Part shown: positions 13,401-64,000 of the stretch, piece by piece
Layout: the number at the start of each line of letters is the position of its first letter
Numbering within the stretch: position 1 is the stretch's first letter
Source: a virus
Virus record (IMG/VR): IMGVR_UViG_3300020404_001578
Coordinates: 79,639 to 143,638 of that record
DNA: 64,000 nt
Reading direction: 5' to 3' (one strand)
Notes under the pieces: model-generated
The model's database searches: none
Told to the model about the DNA's origin: nothing
The model's input: only the letters and a program-made list of their open reading frames with translations
Translations under genes and position numbers: made by a program

Positions 13401-14989
13401 GCATCGCCATATTGCCCTGCTTGAAGTAGTCCTTCTTGTCTTGCTGTGGCTGCTGCGCTAGTGAACATATACGGGTGGTGGGCGGTTCTGTCAGCCATGT
13501 GAAATATCTTACACAGTAAGTACAGGTCGCCTGCAATTGTTTGGAATTCTTCTTCTGTAATACCTCTTCGTCCTACATCTGATTGTAATAGAAGTGAGAT
13601 GTGGTCTGTCAAATTTTGAGATAGTCCAATTTCTGGTGCTATCTCTTCTCTAAACATCTCAGCACCGATTACTGAATGGTGTCTGTTATCTTCCTTTTCT
13701 CTACGCTTTGCAATGTCATGGTATAGCCCAAGCATCAATAGAACATCTGACCTAGTCCAACCTGCTTCTATTTCAGTGTCTAAGTATTCTCGTAGTTTAG
13801 CCCTGCTTTCCTTGCTTAATCCTTCCCAAGTGTAAAGTCGGTCTTTACCGTCGGCCTTTGGCAAGAAGTGATACTTGGTCCACCAATAGACGTACATAGT
13901 GTGAGCAAACTCATCTCCGCCGTAATGAATCCAATCATAGTCTAAGCCTTTCAACTCACCAAGGGCGGTTGAGATGTGACGGTCGTCCAACCCTATTCGC
14001 TTCGCTACTCCTAAAGGGGTACCACTCCCCGGATTTTTTAATGGGGTTTCTTTCTTGATATGTGAATGATACTTGATGTTCATAATATGCCCAAAGCGTT
14101 CATTCATTTCTGCGACCCATTTTCTAGTAACCTTCTCGCAGAACTTCTCGTCTGATATTGCATCGCCCTTGTATTGTTCTTCAAGTTTTGATAGCATCGT
14201 ATCTAAATCATCAATGAACTTACCTTCGTCCATTCGTAAGTAACTATTTCTTCCTTTATCTCCTTTGGTAGTTATCTCAAAGTGGTCTAAGCGATTAGCC
14301 ATAATGGTGTAGTAATGTCTAATTCCCCACTTGTATGCAGCGTCAAGATACCATTGGATATCATCGGCACTACTGAAAGATGGTTCATCCTTTGATGGGT
14401 GAGTGTGATACATTACCTTTGCATTCTCAACGTGTTTGTTGATTTTAACATAAGGCATGATTAAGGAACCTTTTCTATGGTAGATTTGTTTTCCCACTAC
14501 CCATCCATAGGACTCTCCTCTTCTTGTGACAAACGACCATAGTTTGTTGCGGAATGAAGGCGAATGTAATTCTGTTATTGGATGTATACGGAACCATTTA
14601 GTTGGTTTCTTTACTGTCATTTTTCCTAATTCTTCTTCAAATGCTTCCACTGTTGTTGGGTTCTGGAAAGCAGTATCTCCAAAGAATCTACCATGTACTA
14701 GTGTTTGTACTGATGTTGGTGGATTGTTGCGCACATACTCTATCTTGGTTTCCTTTGTTGGAAACTCTACACTATGCTCTATACCGTCTACTTCAAACAC
14801 TGCAACCTTTCCTAAGAACGGTTTTAGTGCCTGTAGTGCATATTGTTTCTGGATTTCATCAGAAAATAATACCGACCATGTCCCTTTGTTAGCATCAAAG
14901 TTAGATGATACTACATCAAACGACCCGTATACCTCTCCCGCCTTAGGAAAGCCAAAGACCATTTCAATCGTCTTCTGACTCGGTTCCAT
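7421..14989 (-). CDS. Giant NP-delimited polyvalent polyprotein (JAB, HD, guanylate kinase-like, YbjQ, NTase, HD, MazG, DUF3140-like, ART-like domains)
   Basis: Likely start MEPSQ (14989). Motifs: YHTHP..SSADD; YHDIAK..HS..HMAD; IAGPMGSGR; IAGAALYMHG..DVD; MHDYPK..AD; EESGEIAEE..GEITD; VNM..WGHDP; YHGSS..VFAT..YIYEI. Confidence 0.8.
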   Translation of the reverse strand: MEPSQKTIEMVFGFPKAGEVYGSFDVVSSNFDANKGTWSVLFSDEIQKQYALQALKPFLGKVAVFEVDGIEHSVEFPTKETKIEYVRNNPPTSVQTLVHGRFFGDTAFQNPTTVEAFEEELGKMTVKKPTKWFRIHPITELHSPSFRNKLWSFVTRRGESYGWVVGKQIYHRKGSLIMPYVKINKHVENAKVMYHTHPSKDEPSFSSADDIQWYLDAAYKWGIRHYYTIMANRLDHFEITTKGDKGRNSYLRMDEGKFIDDLDTMLSKLEEQYKGDAISDEKFCEKVTRKWVAEMNERFGHIMNIKYHSHIKKETPLKNPGSGTPLGVAKRIGLDDRHISTALGELKGLDYDWIHYGGDEFAHTMYVYWWTKYHFLPKADGKDRLYTWEGLSKESRAKLREYLDTEIEAGWTRSDVLLMLGLYHDIAKRREKEDNRHHSVIGAEMFREEIAPEIGLSQNLTDHISLLLQSDVGRRGITEEEFQTIAGDLYLLCKIFHMADRTAHHPYMFTSAAATARQEGLLQAGQYGDAYIAVRNKQDIETIEHILQHNVIPNPPPKMPYNVQYGASYEIAIDPDTAEMLFEDYDPRKIVGNDGKFGSNFRMSYGQGIYIRMPLKDGYIATATLGFAYPAKLNILGIPSREDYGVSAASEVYSRVGQVLAQVYDVKSDELLEPSSDTTSDNETTESPEADVLPAANVSFPVQPMINPKHCKKDVRGVVQQPSQSTIVIAGPMGSGRREVAKELGRHGYQICPMHTTQPSPVGRVPNRDSVDHDKESFMQLVKADQMPYWTMDEKGHCYGYTKEQLQAPKTVMYTSPTMALRMKDSLPHLHIVYLQNNQSPQQHEMKLSSRSGITPRQAKAASKFAYHQKRKASQFDTVIPVDDDDYMNAAMVLNNSNFFPGEAVNKYPWLKSADLISQTVPISKLNPPIKVVRRDKTEDGTSHFYNADTDEDITGKSFDGATLDTNKDVYVVGDPTPIPKGRERFAGGLHYFNIAKWGDRKIIQYSRDSQGFDSIYVERVEIDGVVYLNSAPFNFREPSAHVMVRGRAEVDWESAKLVTGGEITDFDNNSKSHGEPDTVVKSVKIKPRERGPRYRVNPRIPKKYEGQDPSEHSDLYTDEDPRGTIQGLGFKDKETAERSVNIIKRSGKTHAHKIQAAMAMEQRARFHPNATSGIKAAQKVYANFIEEMKKKTKARRNPQFNIEGMQFFTTVPTMKHTNLGAVSAEIEVDRNIPKELVGNVKDIFLGLVEDYEKKTDKRTALAIAFAIDELTEETKRRGGNGVMNFTVETGGSLGLPIVEFNKTIPAVIIVTGDAIKLKKAKRNPSENLTPTATEIREALDIFGEQQGLDANKAMLIAGAALYMHGLKPIMNDVDAIIPGKPDISEGYVNGLELDIGGGPDFTAEMLDYEVKEGVRYQSLSAILAFYKMLNREKDQVWIEKLSKMLNKPRLKRNASYSIQSDFEAMINRAYLARTKEITGEDPTFNGRVWWNEQIPQIEERYGTEPLNYTWLHPIKDPDFDPSDKSKEFDENGDVLPIHFLNQLKRIPLTKQPTPERIMQIALNIGQGLASGSVERRYSFDEFLAANNPHHCPVETEARRAATDPSFKHHEWYIEHHLDYVKAIVHSLKPNAGTDEMEVFNDMVWMHDYPKMLGDKDNFELVRNLVSKHKGKAYADELVQYIDDMERIKSPDWNGQTTMYGAVMSTADALAHYYGPFWQIYMDENKDKDLDFLKKSNAAKLEKDKNKLRAGPKRDALDSVKFQYKGRKVRVVGNEHIAELIEKKNPPLTFEELIPVVFEISEDRQYTLFNRLIKLMEESGEIAEEVLIKEGFKPYKEPGKDGVEGEITDAIIVLLMAFERNGGTPDELKDLLYKSISKGGLKLKRNPSKTPEGRKIPKRYLKGLNKEEMLIAAKEIDKGYKYDINDPKAYEYWKSDIKATARGYKTVPSKYKRKFIQMYGPLPKGGKFLTKIAKATGIKKSILQKVYNKGLAAWRGGHRPGVQQHQWAAGRVYSFVTLGNTVKKGNKKMPDYQLAIDAGLIKANPRKGNKPTLEEFRQWVDQVNMKNKEIKAFMESDWFDVAGLTPEEAGEQGIFSGQDSLRRIIRMRKKLGLTGPKDYIKPGPQTTKRYYELALEKWTGLDSSVPIKEDTTDWGWMLRQNRFNGRAAAYPYNKAAEYRRGPLVKKQKTQNKPSRKLLSLWVWGHDPWRWARKNGIANMPKCADVPWVGMTEKRKYGKVPVLMSPTVKKNPELAIPPFGLAFVPQTEVKGILKEGIKAQDGVVPLIYPFPNWKGKILPALYEKVKETPMKDIALLKINHPLSQGMKADSNIAYYHKGSVKPSQIENIVKWWDSIDFESGQITDTKEYREWMDASGIELILTIKQNPIGRKVMYHGSSVPNINRLQQNYNHLVGREVVFATPNYEYALAMAIDSTNDDLEIGYINGQFMIAEVYEGAFELLKEPSYIYEIKANGFHQHPRLPEMEYIIEASMPVLKSKRVPNTYKELKRIGTTFIPYGSPELR

Positions 14990-51609: not shown

Positions 51610-53982
51610 ATGCCAGAAGTAGGACAAGACAGAGACAGTAGAGCCGCACAAGTAAGGAGGTCAGTGAACGCATATCTAATGTGGCACACTGGGCAACTGC
51701 CGGGGATTACCCGTGAGTGGTTAGATAACAGAGCGGAGAACATATCTAATGAATTCGTTTCAACAGAAACACTACCAAATCCTGAAGCCCATTGGTGTAT
51801 GTATTCCCTAAAGGGACAACTAGACAGAGAGGATAGACTAGGAGAAAAACCAATGTTGGTTCTTGATGCATCAACATTAGCGATGGGCCAACATCTACCT
51901 CCCGCAGATATGTTACCGCAACTTATACCAAGTACATCATTGACTGTCCCAAACCACGACATACCGTTATTCAATAGTGTAGATGATTTACTAACCGCCT
52001 ATCGCAACTTACCAAACTTTTTGATTCATTACTACGAATTAGTAATGGAACAAATTGAAGAATTACAGAGAGCGTATCTACAAGAAGTAGACTTTGTTTA
52101 CGCTTCATCAATAGCCAATATCCATTTTGAACCACCAGAATGGAGAATCATGTGTGGCGACCATGAATCTACAATGACTGTCCATGAATTGCGACAGTCA
52201 AATGACATAGGCAAATTAACCAGACTAACGGCGCAAGTCATTCATACTGGAGGAACCAATACTACCGTTTTATTGGGTGCATTCAGGTGTAGCGGACACC
52301 CTAACGAACCTTCTGATGAGAGGTGCTGTGCAATCACATACATACCACAAGACCCATACGATGATAGCCTCAGGGAACCGTCTTCTTGCTCAACAAGTGA
52401 TGATGTTGCGGGATGCGGTAGAAAGAAAGGAGAAGTAACTTTCACACTACTAAACAAACCAGATACTACAACAACCACAATCCAAATGATTCAAGTCCAA
52501 GACCTTGACAGTGATGACGGTAGCCCTAAGACAATATTTGTTGAGATGAGAGGCGACCTATGTGGTTCTGTTGTTGATGGTGGATTCGTTACTCTTGATG
52601 GTGTACTAATGAGTAGACCTATCGGTAGAGGTAAGAAACATCGTGAACCGTACTTCTTCTGTACTGCTATCATTGAGAATGGTAAGACTAGAACCATTGC
52701 GGTTTCCCCAGAGGATGAAGAAATTATCCGACAGTGGGTTTCCGAGCGTTCCGTTGAACAGGTTATGAATGACTTAGCAAAGCACTTTGCTCCTGTCATT
52801 CACGGCCACATGAATGTCAAGAAAGCGATTATCCTGCAAACCGTCGGAGGTATTCGTATTGAGGCTCAAAGTAAGCGAGGCGATATTCACATTCTATTAC
52901 TGGGCGACCCCGGTGTAGCCAAGTCGCAGTTGCTTGATGCAGCCGTCAAAGCAGCCCCCGGTTCATATCTATACGACTGTTCCCAAGCATCTCAAGCAGG
53001 ATTGGTTGCAGCCGCCGAGAAATTGAAAGACGCTATCAGTAGTGGTGAATCATGGGGAATTAAAGCAGGTGCTTTGGCTCTAACACCAGACCACGCTATT
53101 TGCGCTCTTGATGAATTCCATCTATTGGGAGGAAAGGATAAGACAGTGACTGAGTCGCTGAACGTTGCTCTTGAATCTCAAGAAGTCCGAATTAGTAAGG
53201 CCGCTAAGGGTGTAGTAAGGACTAGGGTTGCCGTTCTCATGGCCGCTAACCCACGAACCCGTGATGCTAGATTTGACCCAGATAGCCCAACACCACTTTA
53301 CCAACAGGCAGGAATCAAAGTCAATACTGCTTCAAGGACAGACTACATCGCCGTCATGCGTGATTTAGAATCCGAAGCATTAGACATTAGTATCTCCGAG
53401 GCAATGTGGGATGCATCAGACCCAATGATGCAAACACTACAGTCGCAGGAATTCCCTATTGAAAACTTCATGCCTAAACTAGTTACTCTAGCAAAGCGCA
53501 TTGGTACAGTATTCTATAGCAATGAAGCCAAGAGTTACTTAGTCAATACTTACAATGAAGCACGTAAGAATGCAGGTGCCGAAGGGAAAGTAACACCAAG
53601 GCGTAACGAATCACTACGTAGATTTGTACAAGCAGTTACCAGACTCACCTTACAAAGTGAAGTATCATTAGACCATGCAAAGTTTGCTGAGAATCTACTC
53701 CGTACTAGCATGACTGATACTCATCCCGCTCAAATGGATGGCGGACAAACCAGTAAGCAAAAGGAAATCTATGATGAAGTTTGGCGACTCTTTAACGAGG
53801 CTTGGATGGACACCGAAGGCGATTCGGTCCATCTGGATACCTTGGAAAACTACGTTTCGCAAAACTGGGATATCAAACTTGATAAACCGGCTAGGAATAC
53901 AATCAGTTCAGCGATGAAGGCATTTGAAACCGAGGGCAAAATTCAACGCCGTGGAAACAAATATGCCGTGAAATCGTGGTAA
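51610..53982 (+). CDS. mcm: MCM replicative helicase
   Basis: RGDIHILLLGDPGVAKSQ, AGLVAA, ICALDEF, MAANP, SRTD, TPRRNESL; Zn finger. Confidence 0.95.
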   Translation: MPEVGQDRDSRAAQVRRSVNAYLMWHTGQLPGITREWLDNRAENISNEFVSTETLPNPEAHWCMYSLKGQLDREDRLGEKPMLVLDASTLAMGQHLPPADMLPQLIPSTSLTVPNHDIPLFNSVDDLLTAYRNLPNFLIHYYELVMEQIEELQRAYLQEVDFVYASSIANIHFEPPEWRIMCGDHESTMTVHELRQSNDIGKLTRLTAQVIHTGGTNTTVLLGAFRCSGHPNEPSDERCCAITYIPQDPYDDSLREPSSCSTSDDVAGCGRKKGEVTFTLLNKPDTTTTTIQMIQVQDLDSDDGSPKTIFVEMRGDLCGSVVDGGFVTLDGVLMSRPIGRGKKHREPYFFCTAIIENGKTRTIAVSPEDEEIIRQWVSERSVEQVMNDLAKHFAPVIHGHMNVKKAIILQTVGGIRIEAQSKRGDIHILLLGDPGVAKSQLLDAAVKAAPGSYLYDCSQASQAGLVAAAEKLKDAISSGESWGIKAGALALTPDHAICALDEFHLLGGKDKTVTESLNVALESQEVRISKAAKGVVRTRVAVLMAANPRTRDARFDPDSPTPLYQQAGIKVNTASRTDYIAVMRDLESEALDISISEAMWDASDPMMQTLQSQEFPIENFMPKLVTLAKRIGTVFYSNEAKSYLVNTYNEARKNAGAEGKVTPRRNESLRRFVQAVTRLTLQSEVSLDHAKFAENLLRTSMTDTHPAQMDGGQTSKQKEIYDEVWRLFNEAWMDTEGDSVHLDTLENYVSQNWDIKLDKPARNTISSAMKAFETEGKIQRRGNKYAVKSW

Positions 53983-54875
53983 GGAAAAATAAAAAGGAGA
54001 GGAAAAATTTGGAAGAAGTGTACAACGAATATGACAAAATCGGACCTGCGCTCGTCAAGGCGATTGCAGAAATTCCGACCATAGGAAAGAACGCCCAAGC
54101 GTATGGGTACAAATACGCAACACTGGATGATATTTTGTCTGTAGTGAAGCCAATTCTGGCAAAACATGAATTGGCCCTGCTACAACCACTATCCGGCAAC
54201 GGAATAGAAACAATTGTCATGCACAGTAGCGGTCAATGTGTCCGTGATGTGTTTATGCTACCAGAAATGAGCGAGAGCAAAAAGATGAATTCTGCCCAAG
54301 CACTTGGCGCAGCAATCACATACACACGAAGGTACGCACTGTCCTCTATGTTGTGTATTGGTGTTGATGAAGACACCGATGGAGCAATAGGACAGAAAGC
54401 AACAACAAAACCAGTACAAAACAATGAAGGTCAAGGCTCCTTTTCAGGTTTTAAGCCGGCTGCTCAAGTAGAGAGCGTAAGACCCACCCCTGAGCCTGTA
54501 GAAGAAGTACCAGAAGAACCAACACCACCAACATGGGTTGAAACTGCTCAAGTAGTGTTAGATGGTACTAAGGAAAAGACGCAGGAAAAAGAAAAAGCCC
54601 CGCAATCTCAAACCATTGACTGGGATGAGAAAGCGAGGCTAGATGGAAACCTGTGTACCAAGAAGCAAGCGAGTTATATTTACTCACTTGCTCAACGGGC
54701 TCTTGGGCAAGACTTTGAGTTAGAAGAATTAGTCAATTGGACCGAAGACCACGGACTAGCGGAGTCAGACTTCGTCGGCCTTGAGCCAGACGAATTTTGC
54801 GGCAACCTCAAGAAGAGGGATGCCACCAAGGTCATTGGTGAAATGAAGCGACTAGCAGGCATAGAAACAAACTGA
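53976..54875 (+). CDS. erf: ERF-family ssDNA-annealing protein
   Basis: YKYATLDDI..HSSGQ..AQALGAAITYTRRYAL..DEDTDG; true start may be the TTG near 54009. Confidence 0.9.
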   Translation: MVRKNKKERKNLEEVYNEYDKIGPALVKAIAEIPTIGKNAQAYGYKYATLDDILSVVKPILAKHELALLQPLSGNGIETIVMHSSGQCVRDVFMLPEMSESKKMNSAQALGAAITYTRRYALSSMLCIGVDEDTDGAIGQKATTKPVQNNEGQGSFSGFKPAAQVESVRPTPEPVEEVPEEPTPPTWVETAQVVLDGTKEKTQEKEKAPQSQTIDWDEKARLDGNLCTKKQASYIYSLAQRALGQDFELEELVNWTEDHGLAESDFVGLEPDEFCGNLKKRDATKVIGEMKRLAGIETN

Positions 54876-54885
54876 GGTTGATTCT

Positions 54886-56052
54886 ATGACTCTAACTAAG
54901 GCAGACCTCCCTACGATTCTTCGTAATCATTACAAAGAATGTGATTTATCAATACCAGATATCTCACGGAGGTCTGTCGCATTTAGCACATGGGACAGAC
55001 ATAATGCATATTCAAGTATTGAGGAATTGCGCAAGGACTTAGTAGAAAATGTACCAGAGACAATGTATTACTCTACGGCAAGATATCTCAACCCATCTGC
55101 AAATGCAGGCGCAGGTAACGCAAGCGAAACATGGAAACAGAAAGACCGTAAGGCAACAGACCTTACGTTTGATTTGGATTTTGACCATGTTGAAGGACAC
55201 AGTAATCTAGATTACGCTGACCAAATCAAGGTCATAGCCGAACACACACTCCGTTTGGTAAACATTCTAGAATCACAGTATGGTGTCCCGCAGAATAAGT
55301 ATGAAATTACATTCTCCGGAAGACGGGGGTTTCATGTGAGGGTGTTTGATGAGAGGTATATTTACCTCAACAAAAATCAACGCAAAGAAATAATGCGCCA
55401 CCTTCTTGGCGAAAGATTAGACCGTAAGGCTACTCTTGCATCTTATCACATGAACCCCCGTAGTGGAGATTTAGCATTTAGGCTACATAAGCCATCTATG
55501 AAGAGTTGGGGTGGCCGTATACGGTTAGCCTGTAATTGGTTGATGGACAACTTTGACCAAGCAACCCTTGAACAGTGGTGGCCAAAGAAAATCACTCCAA
55601 AGGAATTACAGAATCTAATGTCCCGCTTTGTAAACTCAACATTCCGTGCTAGACTAACCAAGACAGGTGATTTGAGAGCATTCTTTGGCCAGAAACTAGC
55701 CACCAAAGCCAGACTAGAGAATATGTACAAGATGTTAGAAACTCTAGCAATATCAATGTATTCTGTAGAAATAGATACTTCTGTTACTGCCGAAGTAAAC
55801 AAAATTATTCGCATGAAGGGCTCTATAAACATCAAACAGGGCTACGAATGCCGTGCCGTTGAGAAAGACGAATTGACCGACATGGACTATTTATTCTACA
55901 ACTGTAGGCAGACTTTTGGTGAGAAGCCCGTTGAAATTCAAGTCCCTAAACACATGGTTGTTCATGGTGAAAGGACATTCCCATTACTAGCAGGAACACA
56001 CACGCTTCCAATGCATGAAGCGGTTCTTGCACTTTGTCAAATGGACCAGTAA
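54886..56052 (+). CDS. priS: Archaeo-eukaryotic DNA primase catalytic subunit
   Basis: YYSTARY..DLTFDLDFD..FSGRRGFHV..IDTSVT..IIRMKGSIN. Confidence 0.9.
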   Translation: MTLTKADLPTILRNHYKECDLSIPDISRRSVAFSTWDRHNAYSSIEELRKDLVENVPETMYYSTARYLNPSANAGAGNASETWKQKDRKATDLTFDLDFDHVEGHSNLDYADQIKVIAEHTLRLVNILESQYGVPQNKYEITFSGRRGFHVRVFDERYIYLNKNQRKEIMRHLLGERLDRKATLASYHMNPRSGDLAFRLHKPSMKSWGGRIRLACNWLMDNFDQATLEQWWPKKITPKELQNLMSRFVNSTFRARLTKTGDLRAFFGQKLATKARLENMYKMLETLAISMYSVEIDTSVTAEVNKIIRMKGSINIKQGYECRAVEKDELTDMDYLFYNCRQTFGEKPVEIQVPKHMVVHGERTFPLLAGTHTLPMHEAVLALCQMDQ

Positions 56053-56203
56053 ATCTTTGAGGTTCTTGAGGAACCATTCGTCTGGTACGTGGACGTACGT
56101 GCGAAAAAGAATAAGACCCGCAATAGCGAGTCTTAGGGTAGCAAACGTAGATTTGCACGAAAAAGAATAGACCATACTGTAAATAGTATGGTCTTAGTTC
56201 CAT
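55946..56203 (-). CDS. Questionable small ORF (MELRPYY...), last unit of the hairpin array
   Basis: Preceded by a hairpin-TAG element, but overlaps the priS 3' end convergently. Confidence 0.3.
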   Translation of the reverse strand: MELRPYYLQYGLFFFVQIYVCYPKTRYCGSYSFSHVRPRTRRMVPQEPQRFTGPFDKVQEPLHALEACVFLLVMGMSFHHEQPCV

Positions 56204-56224
56204 ATTCTAGGCCCCGAAGGGCGG

Positions 56225-56764
56225 TTAAAATCCTAAGTGTAATTGGAATGAGGTCTTGTTAGCAAGCCCTCTTTCCTCTTCTTTAGGAGGTACGCAATCA
56301 CTTGGCCATGTATAGCCAAGGGCGTCCCATACTTTACCTGCCGCATACTTCAGTGTACAGATTTCTGGCCAAGGTTCTGGAGGATTATCCCCCCATGATG
56401 CAGTACCGGCGATGAATATTTCCCATTCACCGATTCTGTTACTTGTCATAAATCTCCACCTACTTCTAGACAGATTTTTTAATGTACTCAAGGAGCCTTC
56501 AATTGAACCAATGTATTCTTCAAAGTATAAATCATCGGCAGAATGTATTCCTGTCCAATGTACTTCCCAGATGTAGAATTCTTGAGCGAACTTCTGGATA
56601 TTATCATCAATGATATCTCCTTCGCCTTCTTCACCTTCACGCCACGGATTCTCTTCGTGGAACTTCTTCATTTCTTCAATTACGCCTTGAGCGTTAGCGT
56701 AGCACACTTCTTCATCCCTACCGGGAGGAACAGCGAACCACTCCATGATTAGGTCAGCACCCAT
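56225..56764 (-). CDS. Hypothetical acidic, Trp-rich protein
   Basis: Start reassigned to MGADL (56764), just after the hairpin element. Confidence 0.55.
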   Translation of the reverse strand: MGADLIMEWFAVPPGRDEEVCYANAQGVIEEMKKFHEENPWREGEEGEGDIIDDNIQKFAQEFYIWEVHWTGIHSADDLYFEEYIGSIEGSLSTLKNLSRSRWRFMTSNRIGEWEIFIAGTASWGDNPPEPWPEICTLKYAAGKVWDALGYTWPSDCVPPKEEERGLANKTSFQLHLGF

Positions 56765-56784
56765 ATCTAAGCCCGTTAAGGCAT

Positions 56785-56904
56785 TCATATGTATCTAATA
56801 CCGGAACCGGGTTTGCGATACCGATTAAGTAGATACTGTAGTAACATCCATCCTGCGGCGAATCCAAATCCCCACAAGAGTCCGTATAGCACGGTCATTA
56901 ACAT
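56785..56904 (-). CDS. 39-aa membrane microprotein
   Basis: MLMTVLYGPLVGFGFAAGWMLLQYLLNRYRKPGSGIRYI; exactly fills the space between two hairpin elements. Confidence 0.6.
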   Translation of the reverse strand: MLMTVLYGLLWGFGFAAGWMLLQYLLNRYRKPGSGIRYI

Positions 56905-56922
56905 ACTAGGGGCATTTGCCCA

Positions 56923-57237
56923 TCACGAATGATAGTTGCAGTGTTTATCATACTTTGATATCTCCCTCTTACAGGGTTTACCGTCTTTCTTGATAAAACC
57001 GCATTTCTTCTTATTCGCTTGTATTTTTTGTCTTCTTTGTTCTTCCACTACATCATACCATTCTTCGTAGGTTTCTTTTGTAGTGTTATAATCACCATTA
57101 TAGGTTTCTTCAAAACATTCTAAACATAATACAAAGGACTTTTCCGTTGAACCACCAAAATCAATGTGTGGTCTAGGAGCGTCCCATTTACTGTAGATGT
57201 AACAATTACATTCTCTACATGTAGTGTATCTTGACAT
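56923..57237 (-). CDS. Cys-rich Zn-binding protein
   Basis: CREC, CLEC and C-x9-C-x8-C-x2-H. Confidence 0.6.
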   Translation of the reverse strand: MSRYTTCRECNCYIYSKWDAPRPHIDFGGSTEKSFVLCLECFEETYNGDYNTTKETYEEWYDVVEEQRRQKIQANKKKCGFIKKDGKPCKREISKYDKHCNYHS

Positions 57238-57256
57238 GTCTAGGGCTGTTAAGCCT

Positions 57257-57598
57257 TTATTCTTCTTCGTTAGGTAAAGGAGGAATCCCGTTATCCATCA
57301 ATGATTGAACCATGTCCATCATCTCACCGTGTCTTCCACCTATTTGCATACCTGCTTCCTTTATACACCGGTCTAGTGCTAGGCCGCAAGGATACATACC
57401 TTGTGATGTACCAATCAAACTAGGTACGTGTTCTGTCTCACGAAGCATTTCAACTAATTGAGGATGATAACCATTATCAATAAGACACTGTAATGCATCT
57501 TCTTTGGTTTTGAAAAACTTAGAGATACGCCCATACGCATCGCTCACTGTTTCTTTGAAGCACCATCCTCTTCCTGTTTCAACTAAATCTCTTCCCAT
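57257..57598 (-). CDS. Hypothetical protein
   Basis: ORF bounded by hairpin elements. Confidence 0.55.
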   Translation of the reverse strand: MGRDLVETGRGWCFKETVSDAYGRISKFFKTKEDALQCLIDNGYHPQLVEMLRETEHVPSLIGTSQGMYPCGLALDRCIKEAGMQIGGRHGEMMDMVQSLMDNGIPPLPNEEE

Positions 57599-57623
57599 AG
57601 TTGTCTAAGGCCGTCTAAGGCCG

Positions 57624-58157
57624 TTACTCTTCTTCTTTATGCGTTAGTGCATTAAGAAGGTCAGTCACTAATTTTCGGTATTCATCGTGCATGGTATCAG
57701 CAAGTGCGCCCTCTGGCCAATTTCCTAGACCGTGCATAGGGCTTCCTTGCATACGCTGAACTTCTTCTTTTAAGAAGTTCATATGGTCTTCATTGTCTGG
57801 CCTAAACCAAACTCCAAAACCGTTTAATTCTTGGGCGTACATCACTTTCTGGATAAAGAGTTCTGGATTTAATTCACCAGAGTCCTCATCCCATATACCA
57901 CTTGTTACAGGGTATTTTCGTAAAATACTTCTATTGTAACATTCCTTTGAACAATAGAACATTATCTTATGTTTGACAATATCTCCTGTAGGTTCTAACC
58001 TATGTATTATCATAGGTGTAACAGTAGTTTCTTTACAAGATTTGTCCTGATTTTTACGCCAAGGCTTCATAAATAAGCCATTTCCGTTATACCTTTCTAA
58101 TTGCAAAGGGACAGGAATACTGCCACCATTACATTTTATTGGTGATACTTGTAGCAT
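57624..58157 (-). CDS. Hypothetical protein
   Basis: Contains YCSKEC; bounded by hairpin elements. Confidence 0.55.
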   Translation of the reverse strand: MLQVSPIKCNGGSIPVPLQLERYNGNGLFMKPWRKNQDKSCKETTVTPMIIHRLEPTGDIVKHKIMFYCSKECYNRSILRKYPVTSGIWDEDSGELNPELFIQKVMYAQELNGFGVWFRPDNEDHMNFLKEEVQRMQGSPMHGLGNWPEGALADTMHDEYRKLVTDLLNALTHKEEE

Positions 58158-58166
58158 CTAAGGCCG

Positions 58167-58295
58167 TTAAGCCAGTAATTGAATAACAACTACTGCACCT
58201 ATACCGAATAAAAGCCATGGTAGTGCATCTGTAACTAGATTTACTGCTTGTACCTTTAGATTGTATAGAGCATCGTCTAAATTGTCGTCTTTCAT
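58167..58295 (-). CDS. 42-aa membrane microprotein
   Basis: MKDDNLDD...LPWLLFGIGAVVVIQLLA; its stop codon lies in the loop of the next hairpin. Confidence 0.6.
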   Translation of the reverse strand: MKDDNLDDALYNLKVQAVNLVTDALPWLLFGIGAVVVIQLLA

Positions 58296-58316
58296 ACCTA
58301 GGGCCAATTGGCCTGT

Positions 58317-59444
58317 TTATTCGTAGTCACGGATTGTGATTCCCACTGGGAATCTTGGAACTCCATCATCAGTAAGTTCTTGATATCGGACAGTCAATTG
58401 CTTTCCGATGTATTCATTACCGTTTTGGAAGAGTTCTGTTCTGTACTCATGTGTTCCACGTGGTCTGACACGGAAGGTCTGTCCTTTAGGAGTTTCACAT
58501 TCCCAAATAACAGTACCCGCATCATTTCCTGTTGCCTCAGTAAAGCCAACAATCTTGTACTCACCGTCCAAGAAGGTCTTCACCTTCTGTAAGTCAGCAC
58601 TTCGCTTTCCGATTGCGTAGGCACCTTTCTGGTTTCTAACCATGGCACCTTCGTAACCTTCTTCTACAAATCTTGCTTGTGCTTGGTGAATTTCTAATTC
58701 GTTATTCACCGTAATGTTCTCTACAAGAGTCAAATACTCAGCACCGTCAGTAACTTTGGTGATTAAGTCGTATCTCTCTGTAAAGTCCGCACTAGCCTTC
58801 ATCAAATGAACACAGTCGTATACACGCAAGGAAACTTGGAGCATTTGCTCGTCATTCCCCGGTTTTAGCGTTACACGTTTTACAAGTCCTACAAGTTCTT
58901 GAAATGTCAAAGTATCAGAATATAGTTCACCATCTAATATCAAAGATTGGTCCTTGTTGTTTGCAAGCACGTCTTTCTTGATATGTTCTAGATGAGGAAA
59001 CTCCTTTCCTTTTCTTGACATTAGTGTTACATCTTTGCCTTTCAATACTGCAAGGCATCTAACACCGTCAAACTTTCTCTGTACAAATGCCGGATAGTTG
59101 ATGTTATGCTTACGCTTGTTAAACGGGTGCGCTAGCATAGGGAGCAACTTTACTTGAGTTTGCGCTTCTTCAATAGTATCAAAGTACGCTTCATCTCTTT
59201 TCTTTTTCAACTTTGAATTAGATTCAAAGATTGCTTGCTCTTGTGCTGTACGCTTTTGTTTGCCTACATCAATTACCTGTCCTGCGGTTTGTTTTAGTTT
59301 ACCGTCAGTTTGTCCAGATTCAACTTTCAACAGATATCCTGTTGCCGTCTTCTCCACCCAAGCCCTCCATTGTTGGATTTTGCCTGTACTGGTTTTCTTG
59401 TATACGGTTTGTGTTTCGTATATGATTTCGCTTTCGCTAGTCAT
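58317..59444 (-). CDS. lig: ATP-dependent DNA ligase
   Basis: PMLA, QRKFDGVRC, LDGELY, YEGAMVR, KVK, RYQELTDDGVPRFP. Confidence 0.95.
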   Translation of the reverse strand: MTSESEIIYETQTVYKKTSTGKIQQWRAWVEKTATGYLLKVESGQTDGKLKQTAGQVIDVGKQKRTAQEQAIFESNSKLKKKRDEAYFDTIEEAQTQVKLLPMLAHPFNKRKHNINYPAFVQRKFDGVRCLAVLKGKDVTLMSRKGKEFPHLEHIKKDVLANNKDQSLILDGELYSDTLTFQELVGLVKRVTLKPGNDEQMLQVSLRVYDCVHLMKASADFTERYDLITKVTDGAEYLTLVENITVNNELEIHQAQARFVEEGYEGAMVRNQKGAYAIGKRSADLQKVKTFLDGEYKIVGFTEATGNDAGTVIWECETPKGQTFRVRPRGTHEYRTELFQNGNEYIGKQLTVRYQELTDDGVPRFPVGITIRDYE

Positions 59445-59453
59445 CTAGGGTCC

Positions 59454-59612
59454 TTAGACCAGTATTAGTCCGATAGCGGCTACAAATATTACCGACGCTA
59501 TTGGTTCTCTTGACAACTTCCTTCGTAGGTAGTACGAAAGGTGGTCAATTATTTTTAATCCATCCATTACAATAAATAGTAAAAGCACGGCTAACCAAAA
59601 TTTTTGGTCCAT
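59454..59612 (-). CDS. 52-aa two-helix membrane microprotein
   Basis: MDQKFWLAVLLLFIV...VIFVAAIGLILV; its stop codon lies in the loop of the next hairpin. Confidence 0.6.
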   Translation of the reverse strand: MDQKFWLAVLLLFIVMDGLKIIDHLSYYLRRKLSREPIASVIFVAAIGLILV

Positions 59613-59630
59613 CTAGGGCCGTAAGGCCTT

Positions 59631-59969
59631 TTACCATGTTTTTGGCATGATAGTTAGTTTGTAGTCGCATCCTTCAAACAAGGTATGCTCACGCATACTA
59701 TGTAGCAACTCAAGTAATTCAGTCGCTAGTTCAAACGTCTTTGGATACCAGAAAAGTTCGTAGGTAGTTACCCTACCCTGTACTTCATTGGTTTCCGACC
59801 ACTTTAGGTCCTTTACGTTTGGAGGTTTGTCAGTGCGTACTTCTACTTCCCAACCATCAAAATTGTATTTCTTCTGATGTAGTTCATCAGGCATCATATC
59901 GTTCCATAAATGCCCGTCGTCTAAAGACGACATTTTACGGATAACTGTAACAGCATAAAGCCATTCCAT
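59631..59969 (-). CDS. Hypothetical protein
   Basis: ORF bounded by hairpin elements. Confidence 0.55.
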   Translation of the reverse strand: MEWLYAVTVIRKMSSLDDGHLWNDMMPDELHQKKYNFDGWEVEVRTDKPPNVKDLKWSETNEVQGRVTTYELFWYPKTFELATELLELLHSMREHTLFEGCDYKLTIMPKTW

Positions 59970-59987
59970 ACTAGGGCCATTAGGCCA

Positions 59988-60305
59988 TTATTGCTCTTGC
60001 TCTTTCCTACAAATGGGACACCATGTCCCATCTTCTCTTGGTTGGCATAGCCACGTTCCACCTTCTTCAAGGTGCTTTATCCAATACGTGAACTTTTTGC
60101 GATAGCAATATGCTTCTTTTCCAATAGTTCTTCGCAAGGTGCGTAGTTCGTCAATGATATTTTTCTCACCGACAGATTTTCCCCATTCCAGCCTACTTTT
60201 CTCTTCTCGTAAGTAATACTTCGTTGAGAGAATTTCGCCCCCGGGGTGTGCCAATAGATGTATGTAATACAGCCAGTTGGTTGTTTCTTTGGATAGTTCA
60301 TCCAT
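59988..60305 (-). CDS. Hypothetical protein
   Basis: C-terminal C..CPIC; bounded by hairpin elements. Confidence 0.55.
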   Translation of the reverse strand: MDELSKETTNWLYYIHLLAHPGGEILSTKYYLREEKSRLEWGKSVGEKNIIDELRTLRRTIGKEAYCYRKKFTYWIKHLEEGGTWLCQPREDGTWCPICRKEQEQ

Positions 60306-60328
60306 CTATGGCCATGTGGCCTATTTTT

Positions 60329-60405
60329 TGGCGGACGTACAGGGATTTGAACCCCGGTAATCGGCTTAGAAGGCCGAGATGATATCCAAACTACATCATA
60401 CGTCC
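60329..60405 (-). tRNA. tRNA-Arg (anticodon TCT), CCA encoded
   Basis: Acceptor stem GGACGTA/TACGTCC, anticodon arm TCGGC-CTTCTAA-GCCGA, T loop TTCAAAT, 3' GCCA followed by an A-run; no intron. Confidence 0.92.
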
Positions 60406-60427
60406 ATTACTAGGGCCTCTCGGCCTT

Positions 60428-60910
60428 TCAAGGGAAAGGGTGAGGTATCGGCTTCAATAAGAAGAAGTCGTCCTTATTTCCCTTTTTAATATTCTTGAAG
60501 AGTATCTTTATGATAGGACACTCTTGCGTTATTAGTAAGCAATCCCAGTTAAATCCATCATCAGCACCATTTGGCCATCGGCCAATAGGGTATTGTAATA
60601 CAATACCTTGTGCTACGTGTTCACAATCAATGTTATCATTCATACGATGAAGGCCATCAATTAATTCTTCAAAGAAAGTAAGTATTTGTGATTGGGTCCT
60701 AGTACCGAACTCAAAAAATCCACCTTTTGTGTCATCTCCCATAGGAGGTGATTCATGGTGTTGTAATTCAAGTTGCCAATACGGACCATGCGAATCTAAT
60801 ACTTCTCCCATGGATTTATTCATTGCTCGTTTTAATTCTGACACCAAAGGACTAATTGCCTTTGGTTCTATAGGAACCAATATCCTACGTTTCATCTTTG
60901 GATGCGTCAT
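60428..60910 (-). CDS. Hypothetical protein
   Basis: ORF bounded by hairpin elements. Confidence 0.55.
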   Translation of the reverse strand: MTHPKMKRRILVPIEPKAISPLVSELKRAMNKSMGEVLDSHGPYWQLELQHHESPPMGDDTKGGFFEFGTRTQSQILTFFEELIDGLHRMNDNIDCEHVAQGIVLQYPIGRWPNGADDGFNWDCLLITQECPIIKILFKNIKKGNKDDFFLLKPIPHPFP

Positions 60911-60921
60911 CTAAGGGCCTT

Positions 60922-61434
60922 TCAGCCCAACATTAGTATGTCTACATGGTAGTGGGAATCTCCCCACCATTCTGGTGTCTTGTATCGGTTTCTGTTAATA
61001 TGGTATTCATTTCTAATTACCCTTAATACAGAAGCGGCGGTCCATTTACCACCTCTTTTACCTAAAGTTCCAGATTTATTCATTTTCTTTGCAACATAAG
61101 ATGCACTTCGCTCATCTTTGTAATACAAATATCTCATGTAATCAATAAGGTCCTGTTCTTCCCAATTAGGTTTAACAGTACCATCAACAACATTATCCCA
61201 ACCAAATATACTGCTAGTGAATATTTGTCCACTGTCTTTCAGTTTATCCATTGCTACTCTTGTACGCCTTGCCATTTCACTTCTAGAAATGTACTTGTCA
61301 TCTAAACAAGTTTCATCAAGAGCCGCCACTAGGTTCTTCAAATCTTTATAATCTTTGAAATAGTAATCTTCAGTAATTAGGTATTCTTTCAGTTTGATAA
61401 TGCCTTCACGGAGTTTCTTCATTCGTTTATCCAT
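60922..61434 (-). CDS. Protein with a serine-recombinase-type DNA-binding domain and no catalytic domain
   Basis: SYVAKKMNKSGTLGKRGGKWTAASVLRVI; start reassigned to MDKRM (61434). Confidence 0.55.
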   Translation of the reverse strand: MDKRMKKLREGIIKLKEYLITEDYYFKDYKDLKNLVAALDETCLDDKYISRSEMARRTRVAMDKLKDSGQIFTSSIFGWDNVVDGTVKPNWEEQDLIDYMRYLYYKDERSASYVAKKMNKSGTLGKRGGKWTAASVLRVIRNEYHINRNRYKTPEWWGDSHYHVDILMLG

Positions 61435-61451
61435 GTCTAAGAGCCTCTGGC

Positions 61452-61688
61452 TCATTCTAGTGGATGGGTAACGTTCTTATCTCCAAGAACCCATCGCAGT
61501 GATTTAATCACACCCTCCAAGGCTTTGTAATTACGCATATGAGAAATACGAACTTTCTTCGGTATTCCCTTCTTCTGCATTTGCAAGAAGTGTTGATTTT
61601 GTTTGCGTTCAGCCTTATCTAACATATTTTCTATTTGCTCCCACGTGGTATTGTAGGAGAAATGTTCGCTGTCTTGATGGTCATTCAT
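61452..61688 (-). CDS. Small helical hypothetical protein
   Basis: 78 aa; LEGVIKSLRWVLG. Confidence 0.55.
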   Translation of the reverse strand: MNDHQDSEHFSYNTTWEQIENMLDKAERKQNQHFLQMQKKGIPKKVRISHMRNYKALEGVIKSLRWVLGDKNVTHPLE

Positions 61689-61744
61689 CTATGAGGCCTC
61701 TTAAGCAGGCCCCCGTAACTGTAGTATTTAATCTACTCTAAGGA

Positions 61745-62269
61745 CTACTCAAGTAGCCCAGTTGTGTATTGTTTGACTTCTTTGATTAACTGATTTGCTT
61801 CCAAGTAATGAAAGTTATCAATATGGCTATCAATTGTTGAGTACGGCACTCCATGAATGCATCTTTCAAGCAATTTATGTGCCACTTCTTGTGTTGCATC
61901 CTCGCCAAGGTTGTGACAGTACCCGATTAAATCAGGTTCATAGATAATACAATCTACACCTGCTAACTTAGCCAACCAGATGTAAGGAGCGATTTCCCAG
62001 TAATTGATGAACGTGTTAGCCACGATTACATCTTTACCAAGGTATAAGTCTTCCATTACTCTTGTTGTTGTTTCGGTGTGCGCACGGCTTAGAAACCGTT
62101 TGTCAAACTTGTATTCGCCATCTTTAGTTGTGAACCAGTCGTCTGTTGAGTGTATAGCAGGATTCAAAATAAGGTCTACACCCATGGTAAAAATTATTTC
62201 ATCCCGTAGTTTCTCAGCAAACGTAGATTTGCCACAACCTGATGGACCCCTTACAAGATGTAGGGTCAT
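61745..62269 (-). CDS. AAA_33-type P-loop polynucleotide or nucleotide kinase
   Basis: VRGPSGCGKST, HSTDDWF, VANTF, HGVP; start MTLHL (62269). Confidence 0.8.
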   Translation of the reverse strand: MTLHLVRGPSGCGKSTFAEKLRDEIIFTMGVDLILNPAIHSTDDWFTTKDGEYKFDKRFLSRAHTETTTRVMEDLYLGKDVIVANTFINYWEIAPYIWLAKLAGVDCIIYEPDLIGYCHNLGEDATQEVAHKLLERCIHGVPYSTIDSHIDNFHYLEANQLIKEVKQYTTGLLE

Positions 62270-62282
62270 ACTAAGGAACAGA

Positions 62283-63395
62283 TTACTCTTGCTCCAAATT
62301 TCCTGACATATATCGTGATTTAACTTCATCGTAAAATTTGTCAGGGTTTAGTTCTAGTAGTTCTTTCATATCGTCGGTTAGCAAATGAGGGTTCTTCTTC
62401 AAGAACCCCTCTATTGCATTTCTTTGGTGAAAATCTGCTAATTTACCGTCGGTTGCCATGTGGTTGGTCTGATGCAGTAATGGATTACCATTCATTTGCT
62501 TCAGACTCCAAGCAATACCGTTAGAGTCAGTAGTCAGTACAGCATCTCTTGGGTCGCTAAACTCAAGATTTACTATACGTTCAAACTGGTCAGCGATTCG
62601 GTTTGATTCAGCCTCTCGGTAATCAAGTTTCATTAACGCTACAACTTGCAGTATTGCATTTGTTTCACTTGATGTTGCCATACTGTCATTGTTTTCCATT
62701 AACCGTTTGACTTGATTAACAATATATTCTTCGCCTCCGAAATACCTTGCATGTACATCGTCTGCTATTTTACCTGCTCCCGAATTGTACCACCATCCCG
62801 GTGCGATATCAACTAGTTCGTATTCGTATCCAAGTTCTTTGAAAAAGAAAAGATTTGCTTCATGGAAAAATGTCTTGTGACCTCCAGATGCATACTCATT
62901 ATCTTCACCTTCTCTCCATACTCTTGAAATATAATTCCCTCTTCCGTGAGGGTATTTTCTTAAGTATACATTGAATATATAGGGATGTATTTTGATGCAA
63001 TAAACAGTTTTGGTAGTTTTGTTTACGATATATGTGATACCGTTTTCCATCTGCCATAAGGATAATCGGGCCATCTTTCTAAAATGGTCTTCAAACCATC
63101 TCATAATCATCTTACGTTCTTTTCTGCTTGTCTTGCTTGAAAATACGTGGTAAGACCCTTGTCCGTTCCATTTGTTCATTCCATTTACCCACCGATACCC
63201 TGCATCCTTTTTGTGTTCTGCAAGTTTTGTATCAAAGTAGTAATCAAAGCGTTCATCAAAGGTCATTTTTGCTTCCATATCAGCAATCATGCCTTCCAGA
63301 TGTTCTATCCCACCCTTCGCATCACCAAAGTATTCAACTTTAGGTGTAGAAGGTTTCTTTTTCTTCTTGAATTGTCTAGATTTTCGTCTAGCCAT
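62283..63395 (-). CDS. Hypothetical protein
   Basis: 370 aa with a basic N-terminus. Confidence 0.6.
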   Translation of the reverse strand: MARRKSRQFKKKKKPSTPKVEYFGDAKGGIEHLEGMIADMEAKMTFDERFDYYFDTKLAEHKKDAGYRWVNGMNKWNGQGSYHVFSSKTSRKERKMIMRWFEDHFRKMARLSLWQMENGITYIVNKTTKTVYCIKIHPYIFNVYLRKYPHGRGNYISRVWREGEDNEYASGGHKTFFHEANLFFFKELGYEYELVDIAPGWWYNSGAGKIADDVHARYFGGEEYIVNQVKRLMENNDSMATSSETNAILQVVALMKLDYREAESNRIADQFERIVNLEFSDPRDAVLTTDSNGIAWSLKQMNGNPLLHQTNHMATDGKLADFHQRNAIEGFLKKNPHLLTDDMKELLELNPDKFYDEVKSRYMSGNLEQE

Positions 63396-63406
63396 ACTAA
63401 GAGGTG

Positions 63407-63691
63407 TTATTCCTCAATTGTTAAGAATTGTTCCAATTCCCGTAGTTCAGGGTCGTACTTTAATTCTAATTTTGCCCATTCATCGTACTTTGGTGGAAGA
63501 CCTATGCCTTCGTAGTTTAGGTTTCCATTGTTTACTTCATTTGATTCTCTATCTCTAGCATCTAGCCACTTTGGATGGCGACGTTCAATAGTGATACAAA
63601 GTTCACAACACCAATCTTGATTGAACATGGACATTCTAAATCCGCCACGGGTTATACCGCAACGGTCACACTTTGCCTTTGGCATAGTCAT
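63407..63691 (-). CDS. Small Zn-binding protein
   Basis: CDRC..MSMFN..CCELC..YEGIGLP. Confidence 0.6.
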   Translation of the reverse strand: MTMPKAKCDRCGITRGGFRMSMFNQDWCCELCITIERRHPKWLDARDRESNEVNNGNLNYEGIGLPPKYDEWAKLELKYDPELRELEQFLTIEE

Positions 63692-63702
63692 GTCTAAGGA
63701 GG

Positions 63703-63939
63703 CTATTCCTCCAATATGTCAATATAGTCTTGAAGAAATATTGCTACATCTTTCCAGTATGCTACTTCTTGATTACCATGCTTTAAGTTGTAATTCTCCT
63801 TTTCAAGTTCTTTGATTTTCTTTTCTAAAATTCTTACTTGTTCTCTTAACCTACTATTGTAATCTTGCTCCCTTCTATACAAGTCTTGAGTCTTGTGAGG
63901 GTCACCAGTGTAGGGGTTTCTATTACTGAAACTTACCAT
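63703..63939 (-). CDS. Small coiled-coil protein
   Basis: LREQVRILEKKIKELEKEN. Confidence 0.55.
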   Translation of the reverse strand: MVSFSNRNPYTGDPHKTQDLYRREQDYNSRLREQVRILEKKIKELEKENYNLKHGNQEVAYWKDVAIFLQDYIDILEE

Positions 63940-64000
63940 ATCTAGGGCCTATTGGCCATCAGTTCTTTTTATCTTCCACGTACACACTATCATTAAGCGT

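Follow-up and report, generated by a model that had tools for sequence, protein, structure and literature searches.

In the promoter-early stem-loop (PeSL) cassettes of T4-type phages (PMC2839356, PMC4122927) and in the left arm of halovirus HGTV-1, where a conserved “TATA-box-like region plus inverted repeat” lies ahead of most open reading frames (ORFs; PMC3950731), a short motif with a stem-loop stands between most of the small, variable, and mostly orphan genes of a hyperplastic region. We studied a similar arrangement in a 64,000-nucleotide stretch of DNA (positions 79,639 to 143,638 of IMG/VR virus record IMGVR_UViG_3300020404_001578; hereafter called the window, with position 1 as its first letter) that comes from an uncultured marine archaeal virus. 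All 19 junctions of an array of small genes in this window (18 ATG starts and one tRNA; 56207-63957, minus strand only) carry an element composed of a stem-loop, 1 further base, and the word TAG, followed after 0 to 6 nt by the ATG. This element is probably an undescribed gene-punctuation signal because genes are swapped exactly at this mark and RNA contigs end there, and literature searches for the motif returned no paper describing it. It works like the PeSL, integron, REP/IS200, and intercistronic processing systems but is a member of none of them.

The site shares with the PeSL and HGTV-1 motifs that it coincides with points of insertion, deletion, and replacement between related viruses. 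Unlike these motifs, which hold a promoter of the sigma-70 early or TATA-like type, the element contains none; its conserved word is only (TAY)TAG and contacts the ATG, its hairpin overlaps the upstream stop, and ordinary homologous recombination would need a much longer shared sequence. Integrons are defined by an adjacent IntI tyrosine recombinase and attI, and their attC sites comprise 57-141 bp with R''-L''/L'-R' boxes, extrahelical bases, and a G|TTRRRY core (GTTRRRY). The array resembles integron cassettes in being made of promoterless single genes in one orientation that end in a cassette-specific, structure-conserved, and strand-specific hairpin with the crossover at a short invariant boundary core. 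Unlike attC, the element has hairpins of just 12-25 nt and YTAG as its invariant word, and no IntI was found among the window proteins or 150 array gene families.

Intercistronic processing is known from T7 early mRNA that is cut by RNase III at hairpins, from mitochondrial tRNA punctuation, and from Cas6 acting on CRISPR repeats. RNase III requires stems of about 20 bp and is generally absent from archaea, while the cleavage site of Cas6 is the base of the stem in repeats that are identical. Common to these systems and the array is a structured element at each unit boundary, where a cut would leave the upstream RNA with a hairpin and the downstream RNA with a defined (here nearly leaderless) 5' end. 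Unlike in CRISPR arrays, each copy has its own stem, protein genes form the units, the predicted cut would lie 3-6 nt downstream at UA|G, and no Cas families were found; unlike in tRNA punctuation, the only tRNA of the window is itself a cassette flanked by the element, whose hairpins are minihelices of 4-7 bp. Repetitive extragenic palindromic (REP) elements are small GC-rich imperfect hairpins beside the tetranucleotide GTAG that are recognised strand-specifically as folded single-stranded DNA (ssDNA) and often lie at gene ends in operons. A small GC-rich hairpin adjoining a conserved tetranucleotide in a strand-specific manner is what the element has in common with REP/RAYT systems and IS200/IS605 ends, but no Y1/HUH transposase (no PF01797-type match) was detected among the array families and window proteins, and REPs are neither placed against start codons nor do they delimit every gene. 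Finally, the 3' ends of replication-dependent histone mRNAs are formed at a short GC-rich stem with a 4-nt loop by cleavage a few nucleotides 3' of it, which needs SLBP and the U7 small nuclear ribonucleoprotein and ends a monocistronic mRNA; archaea have aCPSF1, a homologue of the cutting enzyme CPSF73. The short GC-rich stem, the 4-nt loop, and a putative cleavage a few nucleotides 3' recur in the element, and nothing ties aCPSF1 to it.

A first-pass annotation of the window, made by a model from the letters alone, had claimed a hairpin plus TAG ahead of all 19 starts including the tRNA, and folding agrees with this: the minimum free energy (MFE) hairpin ends exactly 1 nt before TAG at all 18 folded ATG-start junctions, and the tRNA junction (TAG at 60412-60410) has the same geometry as judged by eye. 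Stems vary between 4 and 7 bp and differ in sequence from copy to copy. Nothing comparable exists in the remaining 56 kb of the window. With up to 2 mismatches allowed, the pattern CTAGGGCCNNNNGGCC found 12 matches compared to 1.65 expected, 11 of which lie within 56207-63957, and a covariance model built from 16 copies and run over the whole window (both strands, filters off) gave a best non-training match of 14.4 bits at an E value of 0.61. Rfam covariance models run over 55500-64000 with E values up to 1 scored only the tRNA above threshold and had no family match for the element.

The proposed covariation of the stems was borne out at 2 levels. Across the 16 window copies, 87.5% of the cells are paired compared to 74.4% after shuffling, and the covariation score is 0.402 versus 0.166, with none out of 500 shuffles reaching as high. 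The orthologous non-coding site behind the stop codon of the array's ligase gene, compared between related viruses (see below), has 29 sequence variants with 11 distinct stems that are all fully paired (GGCC/GGCC, GGCU/AGCC, GGC/GCC, AGCC/GGCU, AGGC/GCCU, GCCC/GGGC, GCCG/CGGC, GUCC/GGAC, and others); these show CG/GC and GC/AU swaps, and their sole non-Watson-Crick pairs are U.G. Among all unique elements, the hairpin of the coding strand beats that of the opposite strand in 182 versus 130 cases (p 0.004), and interior G.U pairs outnumber A.C (50 versus 31). Read on the coding strand, the wobbles at positions 56769 and 58160 are G.U pairs, and the loops include UUCG (56209), GAGA (60412), and GAAA (60913), as the first reading had largely noted. 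Taken as sequence evidence, this argues for a structure under selection as a folded single strand of coding sense. RNA and ssDNA both fit the structure data and are not separated by them.

Relatives were gathered via the ATP-dependent DNA ligase gene of the array (58317-59444, minus strand) and comprise 1 IMG/VR contig (L001), 80 marine metagenome loci with 74-100% ligase identity, and 1 contig binned into a metagenome-assembled genome (MAG); gene counts in these 82 loci refer to same-strand genes of at least 50 aa. TAG lies 0-6 nt before the ATG in 862 out of 1061 array genes and abuts it as TAGATG in 703 of these 862. The position matrix of the 82 loci reads (T/A)-A-Y-TAG-ATG, where position -1 is never G and rarely A, and the whole 21-kb contig behind L001 contains YTAGATG 33 times in forward and once in reverse orientation. 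The 26 nt before TAG fold with -4.97 kcal/mol compared to -2.59 kcal/mol at random positions (p 6e-61), and the stem ends 1-4 nt before TAG in 361 out of 535 unique elements versus 87 out of 336 controls. The bases before TAG vary by lineage (stem-C/T in the lineage of the window, TAC in L001/L211, otherwise AAC, ATT, or TTT), while TAG-ATG is constant. More distant ligase relatives of about 54% identity (L002 and L005) lack the element and instead have GGAGG-type sites, ATGA overlaps, and TTTAAA promoters.

Comparing the 82 loci also revealed to which gene the hairpin belongs. Downstream of the ligase gene, the hairpin is constant while the next gene changes, and upstream of the ligase gene, it changes together with the upstream gene. 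The tRNA cassettes are built alike, as hairpin-YTAG, 4-9 nt, the tRNA, 4-8 nt, its own hairpin-(A/C)TAG, and ATG, with at least 4 different genes behind the tRNA in different strains, and the last unit of the array retains its hairpin-CTAG despite having only terminators behind it. Because of these 3 observations, the unit is [spacer-ATG...stop-hairpin-N-TAG] and the hairpin forms the 3' end of the upstream unit, whereas the 0-6 nt spacer moves with the downstream gene. The idea of a signal before every gene is therefore right about the position, but the ownership has to be turned round. The upstream stop mostly lies 8-11 nt before TAG, in the loop or 5' arm or next to the hairpin. We also considered that TAG might be a recoded in-frame stop of the upstream gene, but the distance from stop to TAG is even over the 3 frames (189/165/180), so that TAG is not the stop of this gene.

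Cassette gain, loss, and replacement break at TAG|, even between strains that are 99.6% identical. We compared pairs among the 621 unique TAGATG junctions: Where the upstream gene is common and the downstream genes are unrelated (245 pairs), similarity ends at +5..+8 in 171; where the downstream gene is common and the upstream genes are unrelated (621 pairs), similarity begins at -4..0 in 472; and both sides are common in only 99 pairs. The ligase gene alone has neighbours from 33 upstream and 34 downstream families, and the 1061 array genes fall into 373 families, nearly all without a Pfam match. One locus (L140) matches the window with 99.6% identity along 3.27 kb, diverges directly after the G of TAG at 58298, and rejoins the window at the TAG before ACAACT-ATG (57605). 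Another one of about 92% identity (L141) shows 6 replacements or absences within 5 kb, most of them bounded a few bases from TAG, including 1 clean absence of a single cassette with the joint inside the shared CCCTAG; an exception is a change at 61417/60896 that is bounded about 15 nt inside the flanking genes. The first-pass annotation had ranked a recombination site last among its interpretations and had proposed to check whether gene gain or loss among relatives breaks precisely at the element. This is what the 82 loci and the strains of 99.6% and about 92% identity show, and the mosaic breakpoints at exactly TAG| give the idea ranked last the strongest direct support.

Regarding expression, TATA-like words at -42..-19 are not enriched ahead of the elements (19 out of 740 versus 14 out of 651 in the background), and a canonical archaeal promoter before each gene is ruled out by this lack of a TATA/BRE signal; sigma-70-like sites are found below shuffled expectation (14 versus 21.6). 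Terminators occur at the array end only. Shine-Dalgarno (SD)-like GGTGA/GGAGG sites are present ahead of about a third of the structural genes and ahead of 0 array genes, for which the earlier annotation had stated a lack of the GGTGA site. Start codons are nearly always ATG (the triplet after AYTAG is ATG in 582 cases, and GTG does not rank among the 12 most common ones). Pieces of the array are present in 3 metatranscriptomes, 2 of which come from samples that also contain the DNA; this RNA evidence consists of assembled contigs, not reads, and uncovered array parts and depth differences carry no meaning. Among the 22 listed RNA contig pieces inside the array, 3 from 2 runs end on the G of a junction TAG (59445, 57605, and 62271), compared to a chance expectation of about 0.1 (44 ends, 19 positions, and about 8 kb). 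Their spacers to the ATG are 0, 6, and 1 nt, respectively, a moderate hint that the RNAs begin at UA|G as set by TAG rather than by ATG. Four further listed pieces stop 6-19 nt short of a G, and 2 RNA contigs span junctions, as a precursor would.

We favor, with a probability of roughly 0.42, an interpretation of the element as an RNA punctuation site that is cut at UA|G into near-leaderless mRNAs and also serves as a joint for cassette shuffling. This reading fits best because the array is one transcription unit without per-gene promoters or SD sites, starts are ATG only, RNAs end on the G, and the element also stands behind an untranslated tRNA. The array would be a train of single-gene cassettes of the form [0-6 nt spacer, ATG...stop, short hairpin, 1-4 nt, TAG], most likely transcribed from an upstream promoter as one long RNA that is closed by the 2 terminators at 56112-56194. 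A putative nuclease of viral or host origin would recognise the hairpin plus Y-U-A-G on the RNA and cut between A and G, i.e., 3 nt (window) or 3-6 nt (relatives) 3' of the stem. The downstream product would start with a 5' G followed by 0-6 nt and AUG, where archaeal ribosomes could start without a Shine-Dalgarno site, and the upstream RNA would retain the hairpin at its 3' end. Gain, loss, and exchange of cassettes between virus strains would also take place at the same junctions, because every junction has the same short motif beside a hairpin; catalysis of this DNA exchange, just like the cut, its enzyme, and leaderless translation, is what we infer. The post-tRNA junction has the same element, which would thus act independently of an upstream ribosome. 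Bulge-helix-bulge structures and mimicry of RNase Z or RNase P substrates were considered by eye and dropped, as the flanks are unpaired and the RNA ends lie 3 nt, not 1, past the stem.

Several points weigh against this interpretation. The preference for G.U fits folded ssDNA as well as RNA, and in RNA contig ends, cutting looks the same as transcription initiation. Strain divergence within a sample can also interrupt de Bruijn contigs, and the strains diverge at these very junctions, though ends 2 nt inside the shared TAG fit such an artefact inexactly. None of the listed RNA contigs has a 3' end at a hairpin. Inside genes, TAYTAG is found 130 times compared to 170 expected and its reverse complement 114 times compared to 162; without strand-specific avoidance, the hexamer alone is therefore not a sufficient cut site. 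No endoribonuclease was recognised among the 150 array gene families or the window proteins. The array promoter was not seen and would lie beyond the window, which stops inside the array; gaps in relatives gave no clear signal for the start of the array or its promoter. The first-pass annotation had already ranked RNA processing first, as a Cas6-like cleavage at the stem base. Support for processing as such is moderate, with 3 contig ends on G and no TATA signal, but the cut would not be at the stem base and no nuclease has been identified.

Breakpoints exactly at TAG|, where the spacer goes along with the gene behind it and the hairpin with the gene ahead of it, would also be expected if the element were a site on DNA, i.e., if an ssDNA hairpin of the coding-sense strand plus YTAG were the target of a strand-specific recombinase or transposase that excises and inserts cassettes right after TAG while expression tolerates the site. 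By analogy, its logic would be that of integron attC with IntI or of IS200/IS605 and REP/RAYT, where a hairpin lies beside a short cleavage word. The very fast turnover relative to point mutation (with a swapped cassette in the 99.6%-identical strain), the extreme diversity of array genes (373 families), the retention of hairpin-TAG at the tRNA cassette and at the last, gene-less junction, and a strand-specific structure that allows G.T wobble all agree with this idea. ssDNA recombination explains the breakpoints equally well as RNA punctuation does but does not account for the direct contact of TAG and ATG in 703 out of 862 cases, for the missing SD sites, or for the RNA contig ends on the G. 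Moreover, no tyrosine, serine, or HUH recombinase and no integrase were found among the 150 array gene families or the window proteins, where the only candidate is a weak match to a “Recombinase”/HTH DNA-binding domain in a 170-aa protein (60922-61434), and microhomology of the shared motif and similar hairpins together with selection for intact genes could yield the same breakpoints. We regard this DNA-level site as an unlikely account of the element, and both RNA punctuation and ssDNA recombination may be true.

The lack of SD sites and the ATG-only starts could alternatively reflect a translation start without any cut, in which hairpin and YUAG direct a ribosome to an internal AUG that lacks an SD site; this ribosome would either be newly recruited or have just terminated at the stop in the hairpin. 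The upstream stop would be within the footprint of the terminating ribosome at 8-11 nt before TAG, and we infer that the hairpin sits roughly where the SD helix would be. However, the same element precedes the gene behind the untranslated tRNA, which weakens the translation (re)initiation signal that was the second choice of the first-pass annotation in its form of pure termination-reinitiation, and it also follows the last gene where nothing is translated. Upstream stop and TAG have no frame relation, the RNA contig ends on G are left unexplained, and the archaeal anti-SD sequence suggested no pairing of the element with the 3' tail of 16S rRNA, so that we find this explanation quite unlikely. 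The RNA ends on G would be accounted for if each gene had its own promoter with the G of TAG as transcription start, read by an unrecognised viral RNA polymerase or factor on an extruded hairpin in analogy to the virion RNA polymerase of phage N4. The G is located about 10 nt downstream of the loop centre, near the N4 geometry, and the virus has several giant proteins without known function. Yet there is no TATA/BRE signal, RNA contigs span junctions, terminators are found only at the array end, and the hairpin, which reaches into the coding end of the upstream gene, is passed on together with that gene. Pfam searches with the giant ORFs, PDB sequence searches with 3 large orphan proteins, and a DxDGD scan of the long ORFs revealed no RNA polymerase family, PDB relative, or motif in the window; without any such signature, the hairpin promoter that had been listed as a third option has no support and is very unlikely. 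It is hardly credible that the junctions are nothing special, i.e., ordinary 3' stabilising hairpins of dense genes plus a functionless lineage habit of TAG before ATG. The hairpins are indeed small (mean about -5 kcal/mol) and the hexamer is not avoided inside genes, but TAG is retained across lineages with different flanks (CC/CT, TAC, AAC, ATT, and TTT), its distance to the stem is fixed, and the element is confined to the array, being absent from other same-strand genes of the virus and from the distant relatives L002 and L005 with their SD sites and ATGA overlaps.

If true, RNA punctuation would explain how dozens of tightly packed genes are expressed without promoter or ribosome-binding site, and it would represent a defined signal that is portable and yields leaderless mRNAs in archaea. 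The extreme turnover that orphan genes undergo in marine viruses would also become tractable at the level of mechanism, with base-precise breakpoints between strains of 99.6% identity. For annotation, the element is in addition of practical help, as true start codons and the borders of cassettes can be read from it in a widespread group of uncultured viruses. More speculatively, and doubtful in this full form, a large group of uncultured marine archaeal viruses might share an RNA-punctuated train of early or accessory cassettes in which a dedicated nuclease acts at any short hairpin plus YUA|G, with the same site, as folded DNA or via processed RNA ends, being the joint of an exchange faster than point mutation; the array would then be an equivalent of integrons in archaeal viruses that brings its own expression signal. 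Hairpin ownership, the lack of TATA signals, the closing terminators, the TAG| breakpoints, and the RNA contig ends on G all go beyond the first-pass annotation.

In the window, the minus strand carries all genes from 64000 down to about 56200. The array (56207-64000) consists of 17 small genes, with proteins of 39-375 aa, and a tRNA-Arg, with hairpin-N-TAG as unit ends, and runs off the window end; DNA contig X1, probably from the source sample, extends about 3.9 kb beyond 64000 and contains additional element copies. Choosing starts by the longest ORF had been misleading, and the true starts are at 62269, 61434, 58295, and 56764. Likewise, an ATG ahead of the tRNA is coincidental, given that relatives have TACT or ACACA there. 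Following the minus strand inwards from the window end, ggccAATAggcc-C-TAG (63942-63957) and ggaggAATAGcctcc-T-TAG (63694-63712) are each separated by 2 nt from their ATG (63939 and 63691), and gaggAATAACAcctc-T-TAG (63397-63415, by folding) is 1 nt away from the ATG at 63395. The start of a P-loop kinase gene at 62269 is preceded by a 21-nt hairpin with G.U, T-TAG, and a 1-nt spacer (62271-62295), with an RNA contig end at 62271 on the G of TAG. An extra element, gggctacTTGAgtagtcc-T-TAG (61738-61759), has no ORF behind it and leads into a 45-nt non-coding mini-unit. This ORF-less unit between 2 elements (61692-61744) has its own small hairpin, GTAG-ATTAAATA-CTAC, and could represent either a small RNA or what is left of a cassette that has been lost. 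It is followed by a 21-nt hairpin (7-bp stem, 7-nt loop, MFE -12.6) with A-TAG directly at the ATG at 61688 (61689-61713), by gagccAGAggctc-T-TAG (61437-61453) 2 nt before the ATG at 61434, and by gggctGAAAggccc-T-TAG (60911-60928) directly at the ATG at 60910.

The tRNA cassette is entered via ggccGAGAggcc-C-TAG (60410-60425) and TAAT, with the 5' end of the tRNA at 60405. This tRNA-Arg(TCT) (60329-60405) has an encoded CCA and its own hairpin-TAG behind, ggccACATggcc-A-TAG (60306-60321), directly at the ATG at 60305. Further along, ggccTAATggcc-C-TAG (59971-59986) has a 1-nt spacer to the ATG at 59969, and ggccTTACggcc-C-TAG (59613-59628) contacts the ATG at 59612. The ligase gene starts with an ATG at 59444 directly behind ggtcTAAGgacc-C-TAG (59445-59460), which has the upstream stop in its loop and an RNA contig end at 59445, the G of TAG; the post-ligase element is ggccAATTggcc-C-TAG (58298-58313), 2 nt before the ATG at 58295 and with L140 diverging directly after 58298. 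Then follow ggctTAACggcc-T-TAG with a G.U pair (58158-58173), directly at the ATG at 58157, and ggccTTAGACggcc-T-TAG (57605-57622), with a 6-nt spacer to the ATG at 57598 and an RNA contig end on its G at 57605. The latter junction (57605-57624) contains the tandem duplication GGCCTTAGAC GGCCTTAGAC and therewith two TTAG words 10 nt apart, the second of which is where the RNA contig ends. The cassette behind ggctTAACagcc-C-TAG (57240-57255; 2-nt spacer, ATG at 57237) is the one missing in L141 with the joint inside CCCTAG. gggcAAATgccc-C-TAG (56906-56921) lies 1 nt before the ATG at 56904, and gcctTAACgggc-T-TAG with a G.U pair (56767-56782) lies 2 nt before the ATG at 56764. The last element, gcccTTCGgggc-C-TAG (56207-56222), has no convincing gene behind it but a conserved AAT-ATGGAACTAAGACC unit and the terminators; an 85-aa “gene” annotated at 56203 is doubtful because both terminator hairpins lie within it and its sequence extends into the primase gene at the 3' end of the latter.

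These terminators (56112-56194, minus strand) are 2 tandem terminator-like hairpins of 10 bp each (56169-56194 and 56112-56135) with a T-rich tail (TTCTTTTT) after each, and they form the end of the array transcription unit. When GC hairpins with a direct T run were sought as intrinsic terminators, only these 2 sites qualified, while junction hairpins have N-TAG-ATG behind them instead. Both hairpins have the frame TAAGAC...GTCTTA-TTCTTTTT and lie directly after the last cassette, facing the 3' end of the primase gene. The conserved unit ATGGAACTAAGACC(A/C)TACTA... after the last TAG (window 56185-56206, minus strand; L141 around 4130-4160; L144 around 5722-5750) is retained in strains with a different last gene and continues into the first of the terminator hairpins; this unit could be a very small ORF or just a conserved array end. 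The array converges with plus-strand replication genes encoding an MCM helicase (51610-53982), an ERF recombinase (53976-54875), and a PriS-type primase (54886-56052), and the closest isolate relatives of the MCM are archaeal tailed viruses with 23-32% identity. Giant ORFs of 2537, 1493, 957, 1272, and 910 aa are located within 7421-31009 on the minus strand, with enzyme modules dispersed over them (DUF5824, HD, ligase C-terminal domain, HAD phosphatase, NUDIX, and YbjQ) but no PDB relatives by sequence. The kinase mentioned above (61745-62269, minus strand) is of the AAA_33 type, a polynucleotide-kinase-like class, and is encoded in the same array as the ligase. Together, the two could heal and seal cut nucleic-acid ends, which would be relevant if a cut at the junctions leaves a 5'-OH.

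Beyond the loci gathered via the ligase, exact-pattern scans of IMG/VR with GGCCNNNNGGCCCTAGATG and TCCTCTACTAGATG gave single chance matches only, except for the contig of L001, and an MCM-based IMG/VR scan found nothing. The sole match in genome collections is a 34-kb contig (L220, PAND01000013.1) with the same array and replication module that is filed in a Flavobacteriales MAG. In the rest of this 2.1-Mb MAG, the motif occurs 309/328 times versus 239/234 for a reversed-pattern control, a slight excess that is far below array density, so that the contig is probably mis-binned. In the more distant viral contigs with a ligase gene (L002, L004, L005, L010, and L012), CTAG is nearly absent (0-6 sites versus 55-82 expected) and the gene grammar consists of GGAGG...GAAGA-ATGA stop-start overlaps plus TTTAAA promoters; these viruses probably have different hosts. 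L150 contains gene-poor stretches of 2-2.7 kb (4350-6530 and 11430-14120) within an otherwise dense cassette array, which could be non-coding RNA cassettes or array starts. In L001 (7012-8874), several adjacent cassettes encode paralogous, highly basic proteins with repeats of the RKYREENREK type.

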